DNA of 34,568 nucleotides from an uncultured Bacteroidales bacterium. Its GTDB lineage: Bacteria > Planctomycetota > Planctomycetia > Gemmatales > HRBIN36. The translations under genes were made by a program, and so were the position numbers. This document shows, piece after piece, positions 4,633 to 33,600 of the stretch. The stretch is taken from positions 1-34,568 of the forward strand of contig CAYPJB010000003.1 in the NCBI GenBank assembly GCA_964410845.1, read 5' to 3'. Each line of letters begins with the position of its first letter. Positions within the stretch are counted from its first letter, which is position 1. The notes below the pieces were generated by a model. That model was given only the letters and a program-made list of their open reading frames with translations, made no database searches and was not told the origin of the DNA.

Positions 4633-6036
4633 ATGCAACCCAATAACGTATCACGCCGTGGCTTCCTGGCCGGCTCACTAGGGGCTATTTGTGCCACCGG
4701 CTTGCCTCTCTGGTATGCCAGGGAAATTGTCGCTCTCGAACAGGAACATGCTTTACGGGCTGTCAAGTCAGCCAACGATAAGCTCCAGGTGGGAGTCATC
4801 GGATGCGGCGACCGCGTTCGCAGCGGCGATCTGCTGTTCAGCTTGCTGAGAAACCCCAATGTGCAGGTGGTTGCCTGCTGCGATGTCGATGAAAAGCAGC
4901 TCAATTACACAGCAGGCATCGTAGAAGGCGAGAAGCCTAACAACACCCGTGGCAAGAACCTCGATGGCTATCGTCGTCCCATTCCTTCGGGCGAACAGGA
5001 CCCCAATCGCAAAACCGATGTGAAGGTCAAACGCTTCAAAGACTTCCGCGACCTGGTCGCTCTCAAGGAAGTGGATGCCGTCCTGATCACCACGCCTGAT
5101 CACTGGCATGCCCTGCCTGCCATCGCCGCAGCCAACGCCAAGAAGGATATCTACTGCGAGAAGCCACTTTCGCTGACGATTGCAGAAGGGCGAGCGATGG
5201 CCAACGCAGCTCGCGCGAACAATATCGTCTTCCAGACGGGTAGCCAGCAACGATCCGAACTGGGCAAGTTCCGCCTGGCGTGCGAACTGGTGCAGAATGG
5301 CCGCATCGGCAAACTCAAAAAGGTCGAAACCCGCATCGGCAACCCCGATAAAGGTGGACCATTCAAGACCGAAGCACCCCCCGAAGGACTGGACTGGAAC
5401 TTCTGGCTGGGTCAGACTCCAGACGTTCCATTCATTAAGGAGCGCTGCCACTACCAGTTCCGCTGGTGGTATGCCTACTCAGGTGGCAAGATGACCGACT
5501 GGGGCGCTCACCATAACGACACGGCCCAGTGGGCGCTCGGCATGGATGACAGCGGCCCGGTGAAGGTCACTGCCATCAAGGGTGAAGCCCCCGGCATCGA
5601 GAATGGTTATGATTGCCATCGCGATTTCGAAGTTGTCTTCGAGTATGCCAACGGCGTGCCGGTACACTGCATGGCTGCTGGCGAGAACGGCGTTCACTTC
5701 CAGGGAGAGGATGGCTGGATCTTTGTCAGCCGGGGTTCATTGAAGGCCAGCGATCCGAAGATCATCAGCGAACCGCTCGGCGCTGACGCCAAGCGCCTGC
5801 TGGCTTCGCCAAGCCACATGGGGAACTTCCTGAACAACATCAAGAGCCGAGGCCGCTGCTGTGCCGATGTCGAGATCGGGCATCGCTCCGCGACGGTGTG
5901 CCACTTGGGTAACATCGCCCTCCGTTTTGCCATGGGTAAGCCCCTCACCTGGGATCCCAAGACAGAACGTTTCAGCGATACAGCCATGAACCAGCACGTC
6001 TCCCGTGAGATGCGTGCCCCGTGGAAGCTTTCGTAA
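4633..6036 (+). CDS. Gfo/Idh/MocA family oxidoreductase with Tat-type signal
   Basis: SRRGFLAGSLGAI signal. Rossmann start (LQVGVIGCGDR), the conserved EKP motif (IYCEKPLSL) and a DWGAHH block. Confidence 0.9.
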   Translation: MQPNNVSRRGFLAGSLGAICATGLPLWYAREIVALEQEHALRAVKSANDKLQVGVIGCGDRVRSGDLLFSLLRNPNVQVVACCDVDEKQLNYTAGIVEGEKPNNTRGKNLDGYRRPIPSGEQDPNRKTDVKVKRFKDFRDLVALKEVDAVLITTPDHWHALPAIAAANAKKDIYCEKPLSLTIAEGRAMANAARANNIVFQTGSQQRSELGKFRLACELVQNGRIGKLKKVETRIGNPDKGGPFKTEAPPEGLDWNFWLGQTPDVPFIKERCHYQFRWWYAYSGGKMTDWGAHHNDTAQWALGMDDSGPVKVTAIKGEAPGIENGYDCHRDFEVVFEYANGVPVHCMAAGENGVHFQGEDGWIFVSRGSLKASDPKIISEPLGADAKRLLASPSHMGNFLNNIKSRGRCCADVEIGHRSATVCHLGNIALRFAMGKPLTWDPKTERFSDTAMNQHVSREMRAPWKLS

Positions 6037-6060
6037 TACACGCTGGAATGTTTAGCGATG

Positions 6061-6090
6061 GAGGCACTCAACTTGAGTGCCTCTTTTCGT
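6061..6090 (+). terminator. intrinsic terminator downstream of the oxidoreductase gene
   Basis: GAGGCACTCA (6061-6070) and TGAGTGCCTC (6074-6083) are perfectly complementary. A T-rich run TTTTCGTTGTT follows. It lies 25 nt after the TAA stop. Confidence 0.65.
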
Positions 6091-6155
6091 TGTTCGTATT
6101 GGTGATTGGCGAACTGAGATGAGCTCATTCACAGGTGAGGCACGCACAGCGTGCC

Positions 6156-6920
6156 CTACTTCTTTTGCTGTTCCAGTAGTGCCAGTCGTTCGACGATGCC
6201 CAGATACTGATCCTGCCTGGCTCGCCAGACACCTTGGGCGATAGCCCTGGGGTTAGGCCAGTTGACCAGGCTGAGGTGGTCTCCTTCCCAGATGGTATGC
6301 GGATAGTGATGGCAGGCCGAGGTGATGGAGACAATGCCATCGTTCGGGCCTTCACGAAACATCACCACACCATACGGAATCCACCATTCCGGGCTGAGCC
6401 AGGGGCCACTGTTGCGACCGGCGATGGCATAATAGTCCACGCCGGGGGCATCGATCACCATCGCGTTAAATTCCTGGCAGCGCGGTGTCATCAGGTCGTA
6501 GAAGGCATCATGCGGGATGTGCAGGTACCTGAGCCAGGGCTTCAAATAGCCTTCCAGTTTGCTGACTCCCACATCTGCTGCGGTAGAACCTCGATGCGGT
6601 GTGCCGATCGTGGTCAGGGAGAGGGCTTGTTCCTGCAAGCCCAGGCAACTGATGGCATAGCGGGCATCGAGGCCGCCCATGCTGTGGGCAATGAGGTGGA
6701 CTTTTTCCTGAGGGAACTGCTGCCTGATGGCATCAACCAGTTGAATAGCCCGCTGGGCCACCCCAGCCGTGGGGCTCAAACGCGGTGCAACTACGCGAAT
6801 GCTTTTAGTGCGAAGGTATTCACCGATGCCACGAAAATACGTCATCGCTTCCCAGCCGGCAACGCGCCAGCTATCGAAGCCAAAGAGACCATGCACCAGA
6901 ATCAGCGGATGGCGTAACAA
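6156..6920 (-). CDS. alpha/beta-hydrolase, lipase/esterase family
   Basis: PLILVHGLFGF oxyanion-region motif, nucleophile elbow AHSMGG, and a later NDGIVS motif as in family I bacterial lipases. TTG start. Only 24 nt downstream of the second exbD. Confidence 0.8.
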   Translation of the reverse strand: MLRHPLILVHGLFGFDSWRVAGWEAMTYFRGIGEYLRTKSIRVVAPRLSPTAGVAQRAIQLVDAIRQQFPQEKVHLIAHSMGGLDARYAISCLGLQEQALSLTTIGTPHRGSTAADVGVSKLEGYLKPWLRYLHIPHDAFYDLMTPRCQEFNAMVIDAPGVDYYAIAGRNSGPWLSPEWWIPYGVVMFREGPNDGIVSITSACHHYPHTIWEGDHLSLVNWPNPRAIAQGVWRARQDQYLGIVERLALLEQQKK

Positions 6921-6944
6921 GGGTGTGTACTTTACAAAGACAGG

Positions 6945-7610
6945 CTATTTGCCGGGAGCCTTGGCCGGCGGAGCAGTCTTACTGCCACCACCTTTATTCG
7001 GAGCCTTGGTAAGAATCTTGTCGATTCGGGCCTCGCGGGCTTTATCGACCACGACGGTGTAGCTGCCGAAATCCACCCCGGGGGCGATTTCCAGGATAAG
7101 CTCACTCTTGCCTTCACTCACCAGTCGTTCCAGTTCTCGCACCAGCTTGTCTTCGGTGGCAGCATATTCATTGACTTTGTAAATCGTTTCAGAGCCCTTC
7201 TTCTCCACTTTCACCATAATGTACTTTTTGGCCTGTTCTTCCGTCAACTGGCGGGGCTTGGAGTTCGACTGCTTGTTGCTCGGCAGCGACATCACCTTTT
7301 CCATGACGGACATGGTGGTGGCCAGAATGAAGAAGACCAGCAGCACGAGACATACATCGATCAGCGGATTCATATCGATGTTATTGTCGTCTACTTCGTG
7401 ATGCACTTCTTCATCAATGGCCTGAACCACTTCAGCGACTTCAGCAAAGTGAGGGTGAGCTTCCAGTCTGGTCCACTTGGTATCAGCGGGGCCTTTCACT
7501 TCGTCCGAGGTGGCATACACGCCATCTTTCATCCCTTCCACGATCTGTTCCGTGGAGAGAGGTTGCCCGATCGGTTGAGGTGAACCTTCGTGTCGTAATC
7601 GCCAGGACAT
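6945..7610 (-). CDS. exbD: ExbD/TolR-family biopolymer transport protein with N-terminal GYF_2-like extension
   Basis: ExbD signature DMNPLIDVCLVLLVFFIL after about 75 aa. The N-terminal roughly 60 aa (W...G...LS.EQI.EG...G.....DEV.....KW..LE.HP.F) resemble the GYF_2/DUF4339 pattern. Confidence 0.85.
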   Translation of the reverse strand: MSWRLRHEGSPQPIGQPLSTEQIVEGMKDGVYATSDEVKGPADTKWTRLEAHPHFAEVAEVVQAIDEEVHHEVDDNNIDMNPLIDVCLVLLVFFILATTMSVMEKVMSLPSNKQSNSKPRQLTEEQAKKYIMVKVEKKGSETIYKVNEYAATEDKLVRELERLVSEGKSELILEIAPGVDFGSYTVVVDKAREARIDKILTKAPNKGGGSKTAPPAKAPGK

Positions 7611-7619
7611 GGAGATTCC

Positions 7620-8342
7620 TTATTCTGCAGGCGCGCCGGGCGCGGGAGTTTTCGGGCCGACCTTGGCTACATACTTCAGGTTCATGGATTCCAGCCCCAT
7701 CATCAGCGACTGAACCCGCTCGAACGCAATTGTTGATTCCACTTGCAGCACGATCTTCATTGCGCCGGTTGAACCACGCTCCGCTTTCTCGGCTTTCACC
7801 TTGTCGAGCACTTCCTGCTCGGTGAACTTATCGGTGATGTTCTCTTTGAAGTGATAGACGATCTTGCGCTTTTCGGGATCATCGGGATCAGTGCGGATAC
7901 TGATCACGACATTGCCCTGTCTATCAGCAATCTCCGACATCTTCACAGCAGGAATCTTGAATGGAGCAGCCGTGATGAGGTTCTGAGCCGTCATCATGAA
8001 GAACACGAGAAGCACCATGCTGATGTCGATGAGGGGGATCATATCGACATCTTCGTCTTCCTCTTCTGGTGGCTTGGAAGGACCAAAGTCGATTTCGATG
8101 GGTTCCAGAGCTTCAGCCATGTCCTGAGAGGTAGGCAAGCCGCCAGCACCAAAGTAAGGCTGAAAGAGCGGATGTGCGTCAAGATACTCCCAGGCGGGGG
8201 CACCCGGCGTACGAACGCAGTCTCGCCCGAGGAGTCGGCCTTCCTGTATCCAGTCACAGACGACGGTATAGGGCACGCCACGGTAAACCGTGTTCGGTTG
8301 CACGAGCCAGACGTTGAAGAAGCGGGGAGCGTCAGTGGCCAT
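7620..8342 (-). CDS. exbD: ExbD/TolR-family biopolymer transport protein with N-terminal GYF_2-like extension
   Basis: DMIPLIDISMVLLVFFMM ExbD signature. The N-terminal part (VWLVQPNTVYRGVPYTVVCDWIQEGRLLGRDCVRTPGAPAWEYLDAHPLF) is GYF_2-like. The ORF track starts at TTG 8351; I prefer the in-frame ATG at 8342. Confidence 0.85.
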   Translation of the reverse strand: MATDAPRFFNVWLVQPNTVYRGVPYTVVCDWIQEGRLLGRDCVRTPGAPAWEYLDAHPLFQPYFGAGGLPTSQDMAEALEPIEIDFGPSKPPEEEDEDVDMIPLIDISMVLLVFFMMTAQNLITAAPFKIPAVKMSEIADRQGNVVISIRTDPDDPEKRKIVYHFKENITDKFTEQEVLDKVKAEKAERGSTGAMKIVLQVESTIAFERVQSLMMGLESMNLKYVAKVGPKTPAPGAPAE

Positions 8343-8366
8343 AGTTCTCAATTAAGCGTCGAGAAA

Positions 8367-8463
8367 AGTTGTTGGTTGTTTGTTGTTGGTTGTTGGAAAA
8401 GACACGTCGTTGAGTGCCTCAAAGACGTTTGAACTAACAACCAACAACCAAAAACAAATAACT
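8367..8463. repeat. GTTGTTGG / CCAACAAC inverted-repeat hairpin (gene-less member of the family also seen at 23054-23518)
   Basis: Left arm AGTTGTTGGTTGTTTGTTGTTGGTTGTTGG (8367-8396). Right arm AACTAACAACCAACAACCAAAAACAAATAACT (8432-8463). The arms are largely complementary, and a 35-nt spacer separates them. The element fills the exbB-exbD intercistronic gap. Confidence 0.7.
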
Positions 8464-8470
8464 CAAAATG

Positions 8471-9223
8471 CTACCGAACCACCTGGGCAGCCATCGGTCG
8501 GCCAGTGGGGACAACCGCAGCAACTGCACCTTGCATCGGCGGTGTGGTCTTGGCGGCCTGGGTCAGAAGTAGCAACTTCTGGCCAGCGTTCTTCATCTTG
8601 ATGTCGTACTTGTGAATCCATGCTTTGCAGAGCGTGTGGGTAAACACTAGTGGAATAGCAGTGAGCAGACCAAGCATCGTAGCGAAGAGTGCCAGACCGA
8701 TTTCAGCGGATGCCTGAGCCTGTCCGCCGGTACCCTTCTCGCTGGCTTCACCCAGTGCCGAGAAGGTGCCGATCATCGAGATGATCGTAAAGAGCAGCCC
8801 GACCATCGTCGCAATCTTGGCGAAGGCCAGAATCGTTGGCAGCAGGAAGTTGAGTGCGGGAAGAATTTCGAGTTCGACAGCGTTGGCCATCGACTTGCGC
8901 ATTGCAGCCAGGCCTTCACGCTGCTTTTCGAGGGCAGCTACAAAGAGCGTGCTGGGAATGTATTCGTTCTTGGGCTGGGCCTTGCAGAACTTGAGGGCAC
9001 CATCGATACCTTCCTTGTTCAGGATCTCCTGGAACTTGGGAAGGAACAGATTCAGATCAGTCTTGGCGTTGTAGTTGAGCCAAAGCCGCCAGACGACGAG
9101 CACGGCACCAATGAAAGTCATCGTAAACAGAATGACTGCAAAGAGCGTATCGTGCGTCACAAACTTGATGAAGGCGCTTTCTGCGAAGAGCATCGTACTG
9201 AGCATCGTTGACGTTCCAGGCAC
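8471..9223 (-). CDS. exbB: MotA/TolQ/ExbB proton-channel family protein
   Basis: Three-TM architecture with conserved C-terminal TM blocks (KIATMVGLLFTIISMIGTF; ALFATMLGLLTAIPLVF). GTG start at 9223; an ATG six codons downstream is an alternative. Confidence 0.9.
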   Translation of the reverse strand: MPGTSTMLSTMLFAESAFIKFVTHDTLFAVILFTMTFIGAVLVVWRLWLNYNAKTDLNLFLPKFQEILNKEGIDGALKFCKAQPKNEYIPSTLFVAALEKQREGLAAMRKSMANAVELEILPALNFLLPTILAFAKIATMVGLLFTIISMIGTFSALGEASEKGTGGQAQASAEIGLALFATMLGLLTAIPLVFTHTLCKAWIHKYDIKMKNAGQKLLLLTQAAKTTPPMQGAVAAVVPTGRPMAAQVVR

Positions 9224-17656: not shown

Positions 17657-17763
17657 AGTTGAGGAGTATGATATGAGTTGTTGAAGTCCCGGCTGAGTGT
17701 GAACTCTCGCTTTCGTGGGAAGTCATTCCAGCCAGGGTGCCGGGAGCATTTCATGAAAAGTCG

Positions 17764-17964
17764 TGCCGGTGCCCGGAACGTGCATGAGAGTTCTCGTGCC
17801 ATGGAAGCGACTGTATTCAGTCTCCTCCGTGCTGGGCAACGAACAATTCGGTTTCTTCATAAAACCTTGGGGGACTCGAAGTGACTGTACATCACAACTC
17901 GAAAAAGAAGGAGTACCTTCACTTCCGTGGCACGGCATTCTCAGTAACCTACAGAGCACCCGGC
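17764..17964 (+). repeat. copy A of a ~180-200 nt hairpin-forming repeat (left flank of low-GC cassette)
   Basis: Aligns with 19558-19737. Shared blocks are GGTGCCCGGAAC, CATGAGAGTT, CGTGCCA, GTCTCCTCCGTGCTGG, AAGGAGTACCTTCACTT, CGTGGCACG and CATTCTCAG. The outer arms 17783-17820 and 17908-17944 are complementary. Confidence 0.65.
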
Positions 17965-18042
17965 GAGAGCGCATCTTCCATGATGACTTCTCGCTCGCCC
18001 CCCCCTGCGTTACTGGAATGATCCGAGCTCTTGGCCAGTTCA

Positions 18043-18471
18043 TTAAGGACTACCATTATTATTGAGAAAGAAATAATCACCATAGCGCAAGGAAATCAGA
18101 CCTACTTCTCTCGTATTAAACACAATACAAATACACTCCTTTATGTCAATCTTCTTATTTTTATCAATAAATATATTGTATACCTCAGGTATTTTATGTA
18201 AGGTAGTCAGCTGAAGTCGCCAGATTCTGGCGGGAGTACCTTCGACAGTTTTGGGAAATTCAATTTTTCTAATGACTTTATATGCACCTAATAGTGACAT
18301 AGATTTCAAATCGAAGGCAACTAAAGTTTGCCTTCCAGGTGGCACGTAGACCAACATTTTTGCTTGATGATGCTGAAATACAATTGGCACACTATAATCG
18401 TCTGGATCATATTGACGATCACTGTGACAGTAGAGCAAAACAATAACCCAGAATATGCTCGAAGGCATCAT
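18043..18471 (-). CDS. hypothetical small protein with N-terminal hydrophobic segment
   Basis: 142-aa ORF. Its start overlaps the stop of the upstream ORF (ATGA at 18468-18471). N-terminal SSIFWVIVLLYC is signal- or anchor-like. Very AT-rich. I recognise no family. Confidence 0.5.
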   Translation of the reverse strand: MMPSSIFWVIVLLYCHSDRQYDPDDYSVPIVFQHHQAKMLVYVPPGRQTLVAFDLKSMSLLGAYKVIRKIEFPKTVEGTPARIWRLQLTTLHKIPEVYNIFIDKNKKIDIKECICIVFNTREVGLISLRYGDYFFLNNNGSP

Positions 18472-19364
18472 TTGACTACTTCTTTATTAGACCGGATAAG
18501 GCATCGTGACATCGCTGCAGTACGAACGATTCTCCACAATCCGAATCCTACAGATGCCATAATCAGGAATACTTTACTAGACAGTTCTGGAACCGCAGTG
18601 ACAGTGAGCTGCGATTCTATTGTCATTCCCAAACCAATATCACCATTTCCTTGCGCTCCAACTAAGTCAAGTGTAAATCCCCAAAGCACATTACTACTCG
18701 AGTATTGAAGGTTGTTTCCTGTTTGAGAAGTTCCACCTTTTGCTGCAAACACGTAACCATGCCAAAATATTTGATATGGCTTGGCAACAGTTCGTGCTGC
18801 ATCTTCAAATCGCATAGATCCATTTGGCGCAAAAGGATAGAAAGGAAGCTCTGTGCCATCTAAAAACCAATATGAGCCATCAACCGGATCTGTATAGGCC
18901 CTTGCACCAACTCCCTGCGCACTCTCTAGACTATTGGTATGGACGACTTGTAATAATCTAAATTCCTCTTGCGATGGAGATTGCCAGGGTTGATAGGAAA
19001 GGTGGATGTTTGCGCCGCCTGCTGACATCAATGCAATGGGCGTGTACTGCTCAAGTGTGAATTGTCCATCGGCGGTAAAGGAGCTGATGGTCCAGTTATG
19101 CGCGGCATCGATGTTGCTTTTACCTAGGACAGCAGACATGTTACCTGGAAAAGCAGTCATGCCATCCGACAGAATTAGGTTTGTCACAACAACCTTTCCA
19201 TCTGGTCGAACTGGGCCAATTGCGTTTCCAGAGCCACCTGGCGGAAATTCTCCAGTTGGTTTTTGTAACCATCCAGATTGCGGTGGAAGAACTTGAGCGA
19301 CAAGAGCAGTTGGCAAAAAAAACAAAAGGAAAACTGAATACAACAATGAGTAGTAAGGCATCAC
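18468..19364 (-). CDS. secreted protein with PEP-CTERM-like C-terminal sorting signal
   Basis: Signal peptide (LLYSVFLLFFLPTALVAQ). The C-terminus VPELSSKVFLIMASVGFGLWRIVR has a PE(P/L) motif, a TM helix and a basic cluster, as in PEP-CTERM/exosortase substrates. A strong SD (GGAGGAG) lies 5 nt upstream of the ATG. Confidence 0.6.
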   Translation of the reverse strand: MMPYYSLLYSVFLLFFLPTALVAQVLPPQSGWLQKPTGEFPPGGSGNAIGPVRPDGKVVVTNLILSDGMTAFPGNMSAVLGKSNIDAAHNWTISSFTADGQFTLEQYTPIALMSAGGANIHLSYQPWQSPSQEEFRLLQVVHTNSLESAQGVGARAYTDPVDGSYWFLDGTELPFYPFAPNGSMRFEDAARTVAKPYQIFWHGYVFAAKGGTSQTGNNLQYSSSNVLWGFTLDLVGAQGNGDIGLGMTIESQLTVTAVPELSSKVFLIMASVGFGLWRIVRTAAMSRCLIRSNKEVVK

Positions 19365-19557
19365 ATCTCCTCCATTGTGTCATTTCTAATAATACGATAT
19401 TGTCTTTCTTGACTTTGTCACTGCTTAGAATAGCTGTGTGCCCAAGGTGACAGTTTGGAAACAGTGAGGAGAATACCGCAAAACTGCAAATGCCAATGGC
19501 ACTCTAGCTTTCATTTTAACGGCTCATTTCTCCCCTTTCTCACGTTGCATTGATAAA

Positions 19558-19737
19558 TGCCCGGTGCCCGGAACAATCATGAGAGTTAGCGTGCCACGGA
19601 GGTGACAGTACTCGGTCTCCTCCGTGCTGGACAGTCGACCAATTCGATTTCTTCACGGCAGCATCCTAGCACGGAAGAGAAGGAGTACCTTCACTTGCGT
19701 GGCACGTCATTCTCAGGATCCTACAAAGTACTCGGCC
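19558..19737 (+). repeat. copy B of the hairpin-forming repeat (right flank of low-GC cassette)
   Basis: See copy A. In this copy 19578-19630 pairs with 19665-19717 over about 50 positions with few mismatches and bulges, around a ~35-nt loop. Confidence 0.65.
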
Positions 19738-19830
19738 AAAGTATGACACTCGTTGCACATCATCTAGGCAGGATTCCCGTCATAAGATAGTATTTGTCTA
19801 ACGGTTGCATCGGCCTCTGGGTATAGATGT

Positions 19831-23053: not shown

Positions 23054-23085
23054 AGTTGCTGGTTGTTGGTTGCTTGTTGTTAGTT
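23054..23085. repeat. left (GTTG-rich) arm of 32-bp inverted repeat enclosing the four-helix-bundle gene
   Basis: The reverse complement of AGTTGCTGGTTGTTGGTTGCTTGTTGTTAGTT matches 23487-23518 at 28 of 32 positions (hand alignment). Confidence 0.75.
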
Positions 23086-23096
23086 AGGAGAAGAAG

Positions 23097-23528
23097 GTGA
23101 GCAAATTCAGCAGCTATCGTGAATTGAAATGCTGGCAAGATTCAATGACACTGGTTGAATCTGTGTTTCGAATATCTACCAGTTTTCCAAAGGAAGAACA
23201 GTTTGGTTTCGTGTCACAACTGCGACGTTCAGCTCTCTCGGTTCCTTCAAACATAGCAGAAGGACAAGGAAGAGACTCCAGGAAAGAATTCCTGCGATTT
23301 CTTGGAATTGCTCGTGGCTCCCTCCAGGAACTTGAAACCCAACTGATTCTCGCTCATCGATTGGCTTGGCTCGATACTTCAACTTTTGAGAAGTTGAGTT
23401 CCATGATTACGGAAATCAGAAGAATGTTGAACGGTTTATGCAAGTACCTCCGTACCGGCATGACTGGCAAGACCACTACAGTTCTTAACCAACAACAAAC
23501 AACCAACAACGAACAACTATTACCATGA
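23097..23528 (+). CDS. four-helix-bundle protein of the 23S rRNA intervening-sequence protein family
   Basis: YRELKCWQDSMTLVESVF...FPKEEQFGFVSQLRRSALSVPSNIAEGQGR...EFLRFLGIARGSLQELETQL is the hallmark pattern of this family. GTG start preceded by AGGAGAAGAAGG. The stop overlaps the next ATG (ATGA). Confidence 0.9.
   Translation: MSKFSSYRELKCWQDSMTLVESVFRISTSFPKEEQFGFVSQLRRSALSVPSNIAEGQGRDSRKEFLRFLGIARGSLQELETQLILAHRLAWLDTSTFEKLSSMITEIRRMLNGLCKYLRTGMTGKTTTVLNQQQTTNNEQLLP
23487..23518. repeat. right (CAAC-rich) arm of the 32-bp inverted repeat
   Basis: AACCAACAACAAACAACCAACAACGAACAACT. It lies inside the 3' end of the four-helix-bundle ORF (translated as NQQQTTNNEQL) and ends 6 nt before the permease-2 ATG. 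Confidence 0.75.
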
Positions 23529-33503: not shown

Positions 33504-33533
33504 AGTTGTTGGTTACTGATTGTTTGTTGTCGG
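33504..33533. repeat. solo GTTG-rich arm related to the 8367 and 23054 repeat arms
   Basis: AGTTGTTGGTTACTGATTGTTTGTTGTCGG resembles the left arms at 8367-8396 and 23054-23085. I found no complementary CAAC-rich partner nearby. Confidence 0.35.
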
Positions 33534-33600
33534 TAAAGTGCTGTAAGATATCCCTTTTCCCATCCCCTACTCGCTGCTCCCCATTCCCTCACTCCCTCGT

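Follow-up and report, generated by a model that had tools for sequence, protein, structure and literature searches.

Small islets of genes that are bounded by direct repeats and have no mobility genes of their own are a known kind of insertion, and several described systems come close to the one that is reported here. It lies at positions 17764-19737 of the window, by which the entire analysed stretch of 34,568 nucleotides (contig CAYPJB010000003.1) is meant, and consists of two AT-rich open reading frames (ORFs), ORF1 and ORF2, that stand between two direct copies, A and B, of a hairpin (foldback) repeat. The locus is tentatively read as a composite of two hairpin elements similar to miniature inverted-repeat transposable elements (MITEs). 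Composite-like arrangements are known from Acinetobacter, where a pair of 439-bp MITEs surrounds class 1 integrons and a pair of MITE-297 a 76-kb mercury-resistance region (PMC6382973). Like in these cases, two short non-coding repeats bracket a cargo that includes no transposase, any mobilisation would have to occur in trans, and the block is absent from relatives. In the known cases, the copies are identical or nearly so, and both terminal inverted repeats and target-site duplications are clear, whereas the repeats here are hairpins over their whole length, are 81% identical, have a doubtful duplication, and belong to no known parent insertion sequence. With 180 and 202 nt and no coding function, the copies fall into the size range of bacterial MITEs (about 70-500 bp), but the terminal inverted repeats of the latter comprise 15-30 bp, in contrast to about 9-10 nt here, although the whole element forms an imperfect hairpin.

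Repeats of the REPIN and ERIC kind are likewise non-coding, intergenic, imperfectly palindromic from end to end and able to form a stable hairpin as single strand, and one conserved GTAG is a further likeness. The repeat of the window is however about twice as long, two copies of it are seen in the window, and the window has no RAYT gene; repetitive extragenic palindromic units have 20-40 nt, their doublets about 70-110 nt, with a GTAG/CGTC tag and a high copy number, and the repeat lies outside that size range. To our knowledge, such families do not bracket cargo as direct pairs. Islets between attL and attR share with the locus the direct repeats at both ends of an insertion of atypical composition that is absent from relatives, but att cores are much shorter and much less diverged than the repeats here with their approximately 190 nt and 81% identity, neither an integrase nor a tRNA target is present, and nothing att-like occurs at the empty sites that are available. 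Elements of the IS200/IS605 family and their non-autonomous derivatives also have same-strand direct hairpins at their ends and produce no evident target-site duplication, but these hairpins are subterminal and comprise about 20-40 nt, and no TnpA or TnpB is found here. Unusual are thus the length and the end-to-end hairpin form of the bounding repeats, their divergence of 19%, and the lack of clear terminal inverted repeats, of a clear duplication and of an att core. An earlier note, made by reading the DNA alone, had suggested a compact, previously undescribed type of mobile cassette; such a type is not established, as there is one instance only. Neither the repeat family nor ORF1 nor the ORF2 family has been described before.

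The inserted segment and its boundaries

The host is a member of the Gemmatales, as judged from the source names on homologues of its RimO protein, and the unit occupies about 1.97 kb between the divergent promoters of rimO and of an HlyD/ABC-exporter operon. It has the following parts:

17764-17965, no strand assigned: copy A of the hairpin repeat, 202 nt, 53% GC, with 24 extra nt in the apical region
17966-18042, no strand assigned: spacer from copy A to the stop codon of ORF2, about 57% GC
18043-18471, minus strand: ORF2, 142 aa, member of an 8-protein family, with a predicted N-terminal hydrophobic helix and a beta-rich domain
18468-19361, minus strand: ORF1, 297 aa, its stop codon overlapping the start of ORF2 (ATGA)
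19362-19557, minus strand: AT-rich region upstream of ORF1, 41% GC, with a sigma-70-like promoter match at 19421-19394
19558-19737, no strand assigned: copy B of the hairpin repeat, 180 nt, 55% GC, with the better-preserved hairpin; no ORF spans it

In three relatives, whose RimO proteins are 84-86% identical to that of the window, the HlyD-family gene and rimO are divergently adjacent:

L023 (GCA_047602475.1): gap of 275 nt between the HlyD-family gene and rimO
L024 (GCA_016795155.1): gap of 235 nt
L025 (GCA_046350055.1, plus the Logan contig L026): gap of 186 nt

Neither BLASTN nor nhmmer detects any trace of the cassette or of the hairpin element at these empty sites, the relatives being different at species level and 0.8-1.1 substitutions per 4-fold site away from the window. 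Native DNA on both sides can be recognised by conserved motifs, one of which is also present in L022, a representative of the clade closest to the window:

17668-17676, minus strand: conserved motif upstream of rimO, TATGATATG on the plus strand, common to L022, L023 and L025, between copy A and rimO
17750-17763, no strand assigned: native left flank with the motif TTCATGAAAA, common to the empty sites of the relatives
19756-19795, plus strand: motif upstream of the HlyD-family gene, CACATCATCTAGGCAGG...GTCATAAGATA, in L023 and L025, representing native DNA 18 nt past copy B

When 17764-19737 is taken out, the flanks of the window align colinearly with the empty sites, and the distance from the left-flank motif TTCAYGAAWA (17750-17759 in the window) to CACATCATC is then 22 nt, compared to 21 nt in L023 and L025. 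As this spacing matches the empty sites, the outer ends of copies A and B can be regarded as the ends of the insertion, with an apparent precision of about 10 nt that is limited by the divergence of the relatives. Judged from these alignments, 17764-19737 is one contiguous lineage-specific insertion, and the segment that had been delimited by eye coincides with it as far as the comparison resolves. Of the expectation that relatives should show an empty site with a single copy of the element, as predicted for attL/attR, the first part is borne out, since the HlyD-family gene and rimO are adjacent without the cassette, but none of the three relatives shows a single copy; given their distance, the immediate ancestor of the window lineage may still have had a resident one.

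L022 itself (RimO 94% identical) is uninformative in this respect, because a different gene, coding for an amidohydrolase of 1416 aa, is found upstream of rimO and the HlyD/ABC synteny is lost. Just upstream of rimO, L022 has a hairpin with a stem of about 25 bp (8368-8427), a singleton among all loci; it was considered as a relative of the element and rejected, the only common letters being GGAGTAC/GTACTCC, which was judged to be chance. The RimO proteins P0133 and P0135-P0137 (clustering at an identity of at least 90%) do not come from closer relatives, because they are by eye nearer to P0002, which is of the L022 type, than to the window.

Outside both ends of the unit, the pentanucleotide AAAGT occurs at 17757-17761 and 19738-19742, with an offset of 2 nt on the left side. 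It is a weak candidate for a target-site duplication of the whole unit, with a chance probability that is estimated at a few per cent. When the copies are considered individually, copy A has no flank repeats and copy B has AAA on each side.

The inserted DNA is also set apart by its composition. The sliding GC profile drops to 37-46% at about 18000-19500, compared to 52-60% on either side, and the unit is the only strongly AT-rich block in the window. The GC content at third codon positions (GC3) is 34% in ORF2 and 36% in ORF1, versus 58-73% in eleven neighbouring genes, and the overall GC content is 36% and 45%, respectively. A hand count of 34 G+C in 18061-18180 had been given for the cargo and is exact; the 60-nt windows of rimO have 33 on average, and the profile and GC3 bear out the described drop. 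The two repeat copies (53% and 55% GC) are native-like in this respect, and so are 73 nt of the spacer (17970-18042, 57.5%).

An assembly artefact can be excluded, because 12 independent Logan contigs from different sequencing runs carry the locus at 99.85-100% identity. All 12 hold the full unit and none shows a polymorphic empty site, but these contigs were retrieved via ORF1 and ORF2 and are therefore bound to contain the cassette. No integrase, transposase or recombinase domain was found among the 28 largest ORFs of the window, in agreement with what had been read from the translations, and no Y1-transposase domain among the window ORFs.

The repeat pair

A repeat search yields two colinear direct-repeat blocks, 17766-17838/19561-19633 (84%) and 17890-17969/19662-19741 (81%), which MAFFT aligns as one, leaving a gap of 24 nt in the middle of copy B. 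When only the stretch of similarity is kept (17764-17965 and 19558-19737), 144 of 178 aligned positions are identical (81%), there are 26 gap columns including the 24-nt block, and BLASTN of A against B results in E=2.7e-29. That direct copies of one element flank the block, and that copy A has some 20 extra nucleotides in its centre, had both been seen by eye and are confirmed, the extra block measuring 24 nt. A two-copy profile hidden Markov model (HMM) matches only A and B in the window (E 6e-72 and 5e-62), and as the reverse complement of each copy is matched at about 1e-14 only, compared to 1e-62 to 1e-72 in forward direction, the orientation is defined and the copies are direct. Their longest identical runs are AGAAGGAGTACCTTCACTT (19 nt), in which a 17-mer pointed out in the earlier note is contained, and GTCTCCTCCGTGCTGG (16 nt). 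By calculation, runs of 16-19 nt are about what chance gives at 81% identity over 180 nt, and these runs are thus no evidence of a recombination core. The 42 substitutions between A and B comprise 24 transitions and 18 transversions, with all 12 types represented. Near one end, both copies have retained GTAG on the minus strand (complement of CCTAC, 17948-17952 and 19720-19724).

Over their entire length, both copies are long palindromes, though imperfect ones. Copy B contains an inverted pair with 39-nt arms that are 82% complementary, plus outer stems, and is calculated to fold with -84 kcal/mol as RNA of either strand (z -7.5 and -6.3) and with -41 kcal/mol as single-stranded DNA (z -5.8). 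In copy A, where the additional 24 nt are located close to the apex, the hairpin is less well preserved (z -3.7 on the plus strand and -3.0 on the minus strand). The outermost complementarity extends over only about 9-10 nt (TGCCGGTGC / GCACCCGGCG; GCCGG(G)TGC). Among 44 consensus stem pairs, none is broken, five have one-sided changes to wobble pairs and one has a two-sided change, and as the opposite strand shows a similar set of changes, this lack of strand preference gives no argument for a function at the RNA level. In Rfam, no family is hit at the gathering threshold, and at E<=1 there are only sub-threshold matches to microRNA hairpins. ORFs of 106 and 100 aa cross copy A, but as they are interrupted in copy B and have no Pfam match, the repeat is considered non-coding. 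The 106-aa ORF (17723-18043, minus strand) is annotated as a gene in public Logan assemblies and forms a protein cluster of its own; this gene call is almost certainly spurious, which may serve as a lesson for annotation. On the minus strand of copy A, a terminator-like hairpin followed by a T-run at 17920-17907 lies downstream of ORF2.

The divergence between the copies (Jukes-Cantor 0.22) can be compared with that of rimO at 4-fold sites, which is 0.48 from the window to L022, 0.83 to L023 and 1.14 to L024. It thus amounts to about half of the distance to L022 and to at most a quarter of the distances to L023 and L024. This fits an insertion after the split from the L022 clade, provided that the copies were alike at the start and drifted neutrally. 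With such a date, the low identity of the copies is no argument against a single event, and in the short time since then the low GC3 of the cargo would have stayed largely intact.

As to further copies, A and B lie together within 2 kb, the remaining 32.5 kb of the window with their approximately 25 intergenic gaps contain none, and the profile HMM found nothing credible elsewhere in 366 kb of window plus fetched loci (about 330 kb of fetched DNA, of which roughly 190 kb come from relatives). Because the remaining searched DNA has no copies, a chance link of the repeat to the AT-rich block is implausible. The 18-mer GAAGGAGTACCTTCACTT gave only chance matches in species-representative genomes (one per species) and in metagenomes of the Joint Genome Institute (JGI), and the 16-mer of the second run only such matches in viral contigs. 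The matches of these exact-core scans covered 18-21 nt, apart from a 25-nt match (96%) within a tandem repeat, and BLAST and nhmmer confirmed that they are due to chance. A distant BLASTN search with the whole unit against plasmids and phages gave no match. In the collections searched, the repeat is therefore not the ubiquitous intergenic sequence that would have spoken against a special association with the cargo. Composite transposons are recognised by the occurrence of the unit at other sites or in other genomes, whereas ORF1 was found at a single locus, and plasmids, phages and viral contigs gave no match to the unit or its parts.

The cargo genes and the ORF2 family

The two genes overlap on the minus strand as had been described from the ORF list, except that the ATG at 19361 is the more likely start of ORF1. 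Among 5.8 billion protein clusters, ORF1 finds only itself, and tblastn with ORF1 against all loci with ORF2 homologues gave no match. An accidental reading frame of about 300 codons is very unlikely in DNA of 45% GC, and ORF1 is thus treated as a real or recently real gene. By inspection, it has a signal-peptide-like helix at the N-terminus, and a hydrophobic helix followed by a basic tail at the C-terminus. The terminal helices are the sole confident parts of its AlphaFold2 model, which has a predicted local distance difference test score (pLDDT) of 35, and from these traits the product looks like a secreted protein with a C-terminal membrane anchor. Its likeness to PEP-CTERM proteins (VPEL, hydrophobic helix, RIVR) exists by eye only, and the PEP-CTERM profiles of NCBIfam (TIGR02595 and relatives) match neither full ORF1 nor its isolated tail, even at E<=10. 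Sequence searches in Pfam, NCBIfam, PADLOC, PHROGs and PDB, made to assign a function to the cargo, returned no match for ORF1 or ORF2.

ORF2 clearly represents a real gene family. An exhaustive HMMER and profile search resulted in 8 proteins that are 44-56% identical over their full length and share 25 invariant columns; the named sources are all Gemmatales, the remaining members are encoded on Gemmatales-like contigs, and the family was not found in viral contigs. The low-confidence AlphaFold2 model (pLDDT 55) suggests a transmembrane helix plus strands, according to which ORF2 is predicted to be a small membrane-anchored protein. Homologues occur as single genes in seven genomes, and their surroundings represent at least five unrelated contexts, including the following:

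L027, 8001-8417: between hslV and hslU
L028, 8001-8423: after lexA
L029, 8001-8363: after an M48 peptidase gene, a context that L030 and L031 share more loosely
L030, 3004-3411: loose M48 peptidase context
L032, 5129-5545: adjoining a CotH-family gene
L033, 1086-1505: between a sigma-70-family (sigma factor) gene and an FHA-domain gene

The variety of contexts and a GC content below that of their respective neighbours indicate that the gene moves, and this suggests that the ORF2 family consists of small genes that relocate by some route. A search for repeat pairs or hairpins around the homologues at six other loci gave nothing consistent. In L027, a 20-nt inverted pair (7229-7248 / 8547-8566, 95% complementary, AGCTATCTGCTTTCAGCTAT) is located upstream of hslV and just upstream of hslU; the pair encloses hslV together with the inserted ORF2 homologue and could represent a duplicated operator. 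In L030, an unrelated hairpin of about 145 nt (2788-2932), with 31-nt arms rich in GGGGTGAGGGG, precedes the ORF2 homologue by about 70 nt and is not repeated downstream of that gene.

Possible routes of arrival

The favoured reading, to which a probability of about 0.4 is given, is that a composite of two MITE-like hairpin elements was moved in trans as one piece. The AT-rich two-gene operon with its own promoter-like site would be the cargo, the hairpin repeats would be ends that are recognised by an enzyme encoded elsewhere, and the non-autonomous cassette bounded by them would have arrived in one piece and is now probably decayed and fixed in the population. Both the arrival as a unit and the mobilisation in trans are what we infer, and several observations weigh against them. 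There is no clear target-site duplication, and the spacing relative to the empty sites leaves room for only about 0-1 duplicated nucleotide, although the intergenic alignment is unreliable at this divergence; the terminal inverted repeats are weak (about 9-10 nt), and the copies are 81% identical in contrast to the near-identical ends of known MITE composites. No transposase or recombinase was found in the 34.6-kb contig, the unit is a single instance, as no collection searched holds a second copy of the element or of the unit, and the loci of the ORF2 homologues have neither an ORF1-like neighbour nor the hairpin element nor a comparable repeat pair. The lacking duplication and the direct orientation rather lean towards another route, in which the ancestor had one resident hairpin element and a circle with the cargo and a related element recombined into it in a site-specific or homologous event, leaving chimeric direct repeats, from which a recombination of A with B would excise the circle again. 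The copies are strictly direct and both full length, the 0-1 nt beyond the unit fit an event that creates no duplication at all, and native-like repeats around an AT-rich cargo are also in line with such an integration. It is nevertheless considered less likely, since the element is missing from all three empty sites that are available, the window ORFs include no integrase nearby, and identical blocks that are no longer than expected by chance do not provide a core site, while RecA-type homologous recombination is inefficient at 81% identity. The element-free empty sites thus lean to the composite moved in trans rather than to a circle, and AAAGT outside both ends is a weak pointer in the same direction. 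Repeats and cargo may also have come independently, with the repeat being a native dispersed palindrome of the REPIN, ERIC or MITE kind and the cargo being acquired by some other route, so that the repeats either landed separately in two new gaps or the cargo entered an existing tandem pair. At present, the repeat would then do no more than terminate transcription or insulate the cassette from the promoters of rimO and HlyD, which the terminator-like hairpin with its T-run on the coding strand of the cassette in copy A would suit. Long intergenic palindromes are common in bacteria, including Planctomycetes (PMC3733652), the GC content of the repeats is native-like, and a second, unrelated family of GTTG/CAAC hairpin repeats in the window indicates that the genome has dispersed hairpin repeats. 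On the other hand, the flanking 32.5 kb have no further copies, the 18-mer core is absent from the species-representative genomes and the JGI metagenomes, and a strong target preference would be needed for two independent landings precisely at either end of a single 2-kb insertion. All 12 Logan contigs moreover run straight through both copies, from which it appears that the element has no long exact words in common with other copies in those samples. Independent events are therefore considered unlikely.

For two further accounts the evidence is much more adverse. An integron-type cassette, in which the hairpins would be attC sites that have no integrase and ORF1-ORF2 with copy A would be the cassette, could explain imperfect palindromes in direct orientation that flank genes and fold stably as single strands. 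However, neither strand of either copy has an RYYYAAC or GTTRRRY box, which effectively refutes the idea, and with 180-202 nt the copies exceed attC sites, which usually comprise 57-141 nt; the cargo of two genes with their own promoter-like site does not fit either, nor was an integrase found in the window, so that this account is highly improbable. Still less credit can be given to the repeats being functional RNA or template elements, either a duplicated cis-regulatory leader or the template/variable pair of a diversity-generating retroelement. Each copy does stand upstream of a minus-strand gene (B before ORF1 and A before rimO), and a bAvd/IVP-like ORF is found at a distance of 3.4 kb. 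Yet copy A is separated from rimO by the conserved rimO motif, a leader of this kind is missing in relatives, no Rfam family exceeds its threshold, and wobble-compatible changes are equal on both strands. The retroelement version was rejected, as the substitutions are of all types and not adenine-specific, no reverse transcriptase is present, and the two copies lie between genes.

In the boldest reading, the unit could be the first visible example of a class of hairpin-bounded non-autonomous cassettes, whose long direct hairpins are substrates of an enzyme that recognises hairpins or single strands. This enzyme could be a HUH/Y1 transposase, a RAYT-like protein or an unusual recombinase, the class would insert small AT-rich gene cassettes with no target-site duplication, and the scattered ORF2 family, and perhaps a hairpin-enclosed IVP gene at 23054-23515, would be traces of its traffic. 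Such a class is very unlikely on present grounds. If the hairpin repeats are working ends, the unit would be a compact cargo-carrying mobile unit in Planctomycetota, where mobile elements are barely described, and it would hint at how lineage-restricted genes such as the ORF2 family shift between loci. As seen, it is a well-delimited single insertion with two genes to which no function is assigned, and a clean example with empty sites in relatives.

Other observations concern the neighbourhood. In the exporter operon of L023, an additional gene of the Uma2 family (PF05685) separates the HlyD-family gene from the ABC gene, and there is also a third FtsX gene (extra genes at 7822-8481 and 5872-7092); small inserts seem to enter this operon in several lineages. 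The second hairpin-repeat family of the window, with GTTG-rich and CAAC-rich arms, occurs at 8367-8460, 23054-23515 and 33504-33538. At 8367-8460, the hairpin that is formed by two arms encloses no gene (z -5), and at 33504-33538 a lone arm lies between a tRNA gene and miaA. At the third place, arms at 23054-23088 and 23487-23515 bracket a gene for a 143-aa 23S-rRNA-IVP/bAvd-like protein (23097-23528, GC3 41%), which is wedged between two FtsX permease genes; this position between the FtsX genes is without a gene in L024 and L025 and is occupied by an unrelated 141-aa ORF in L023.

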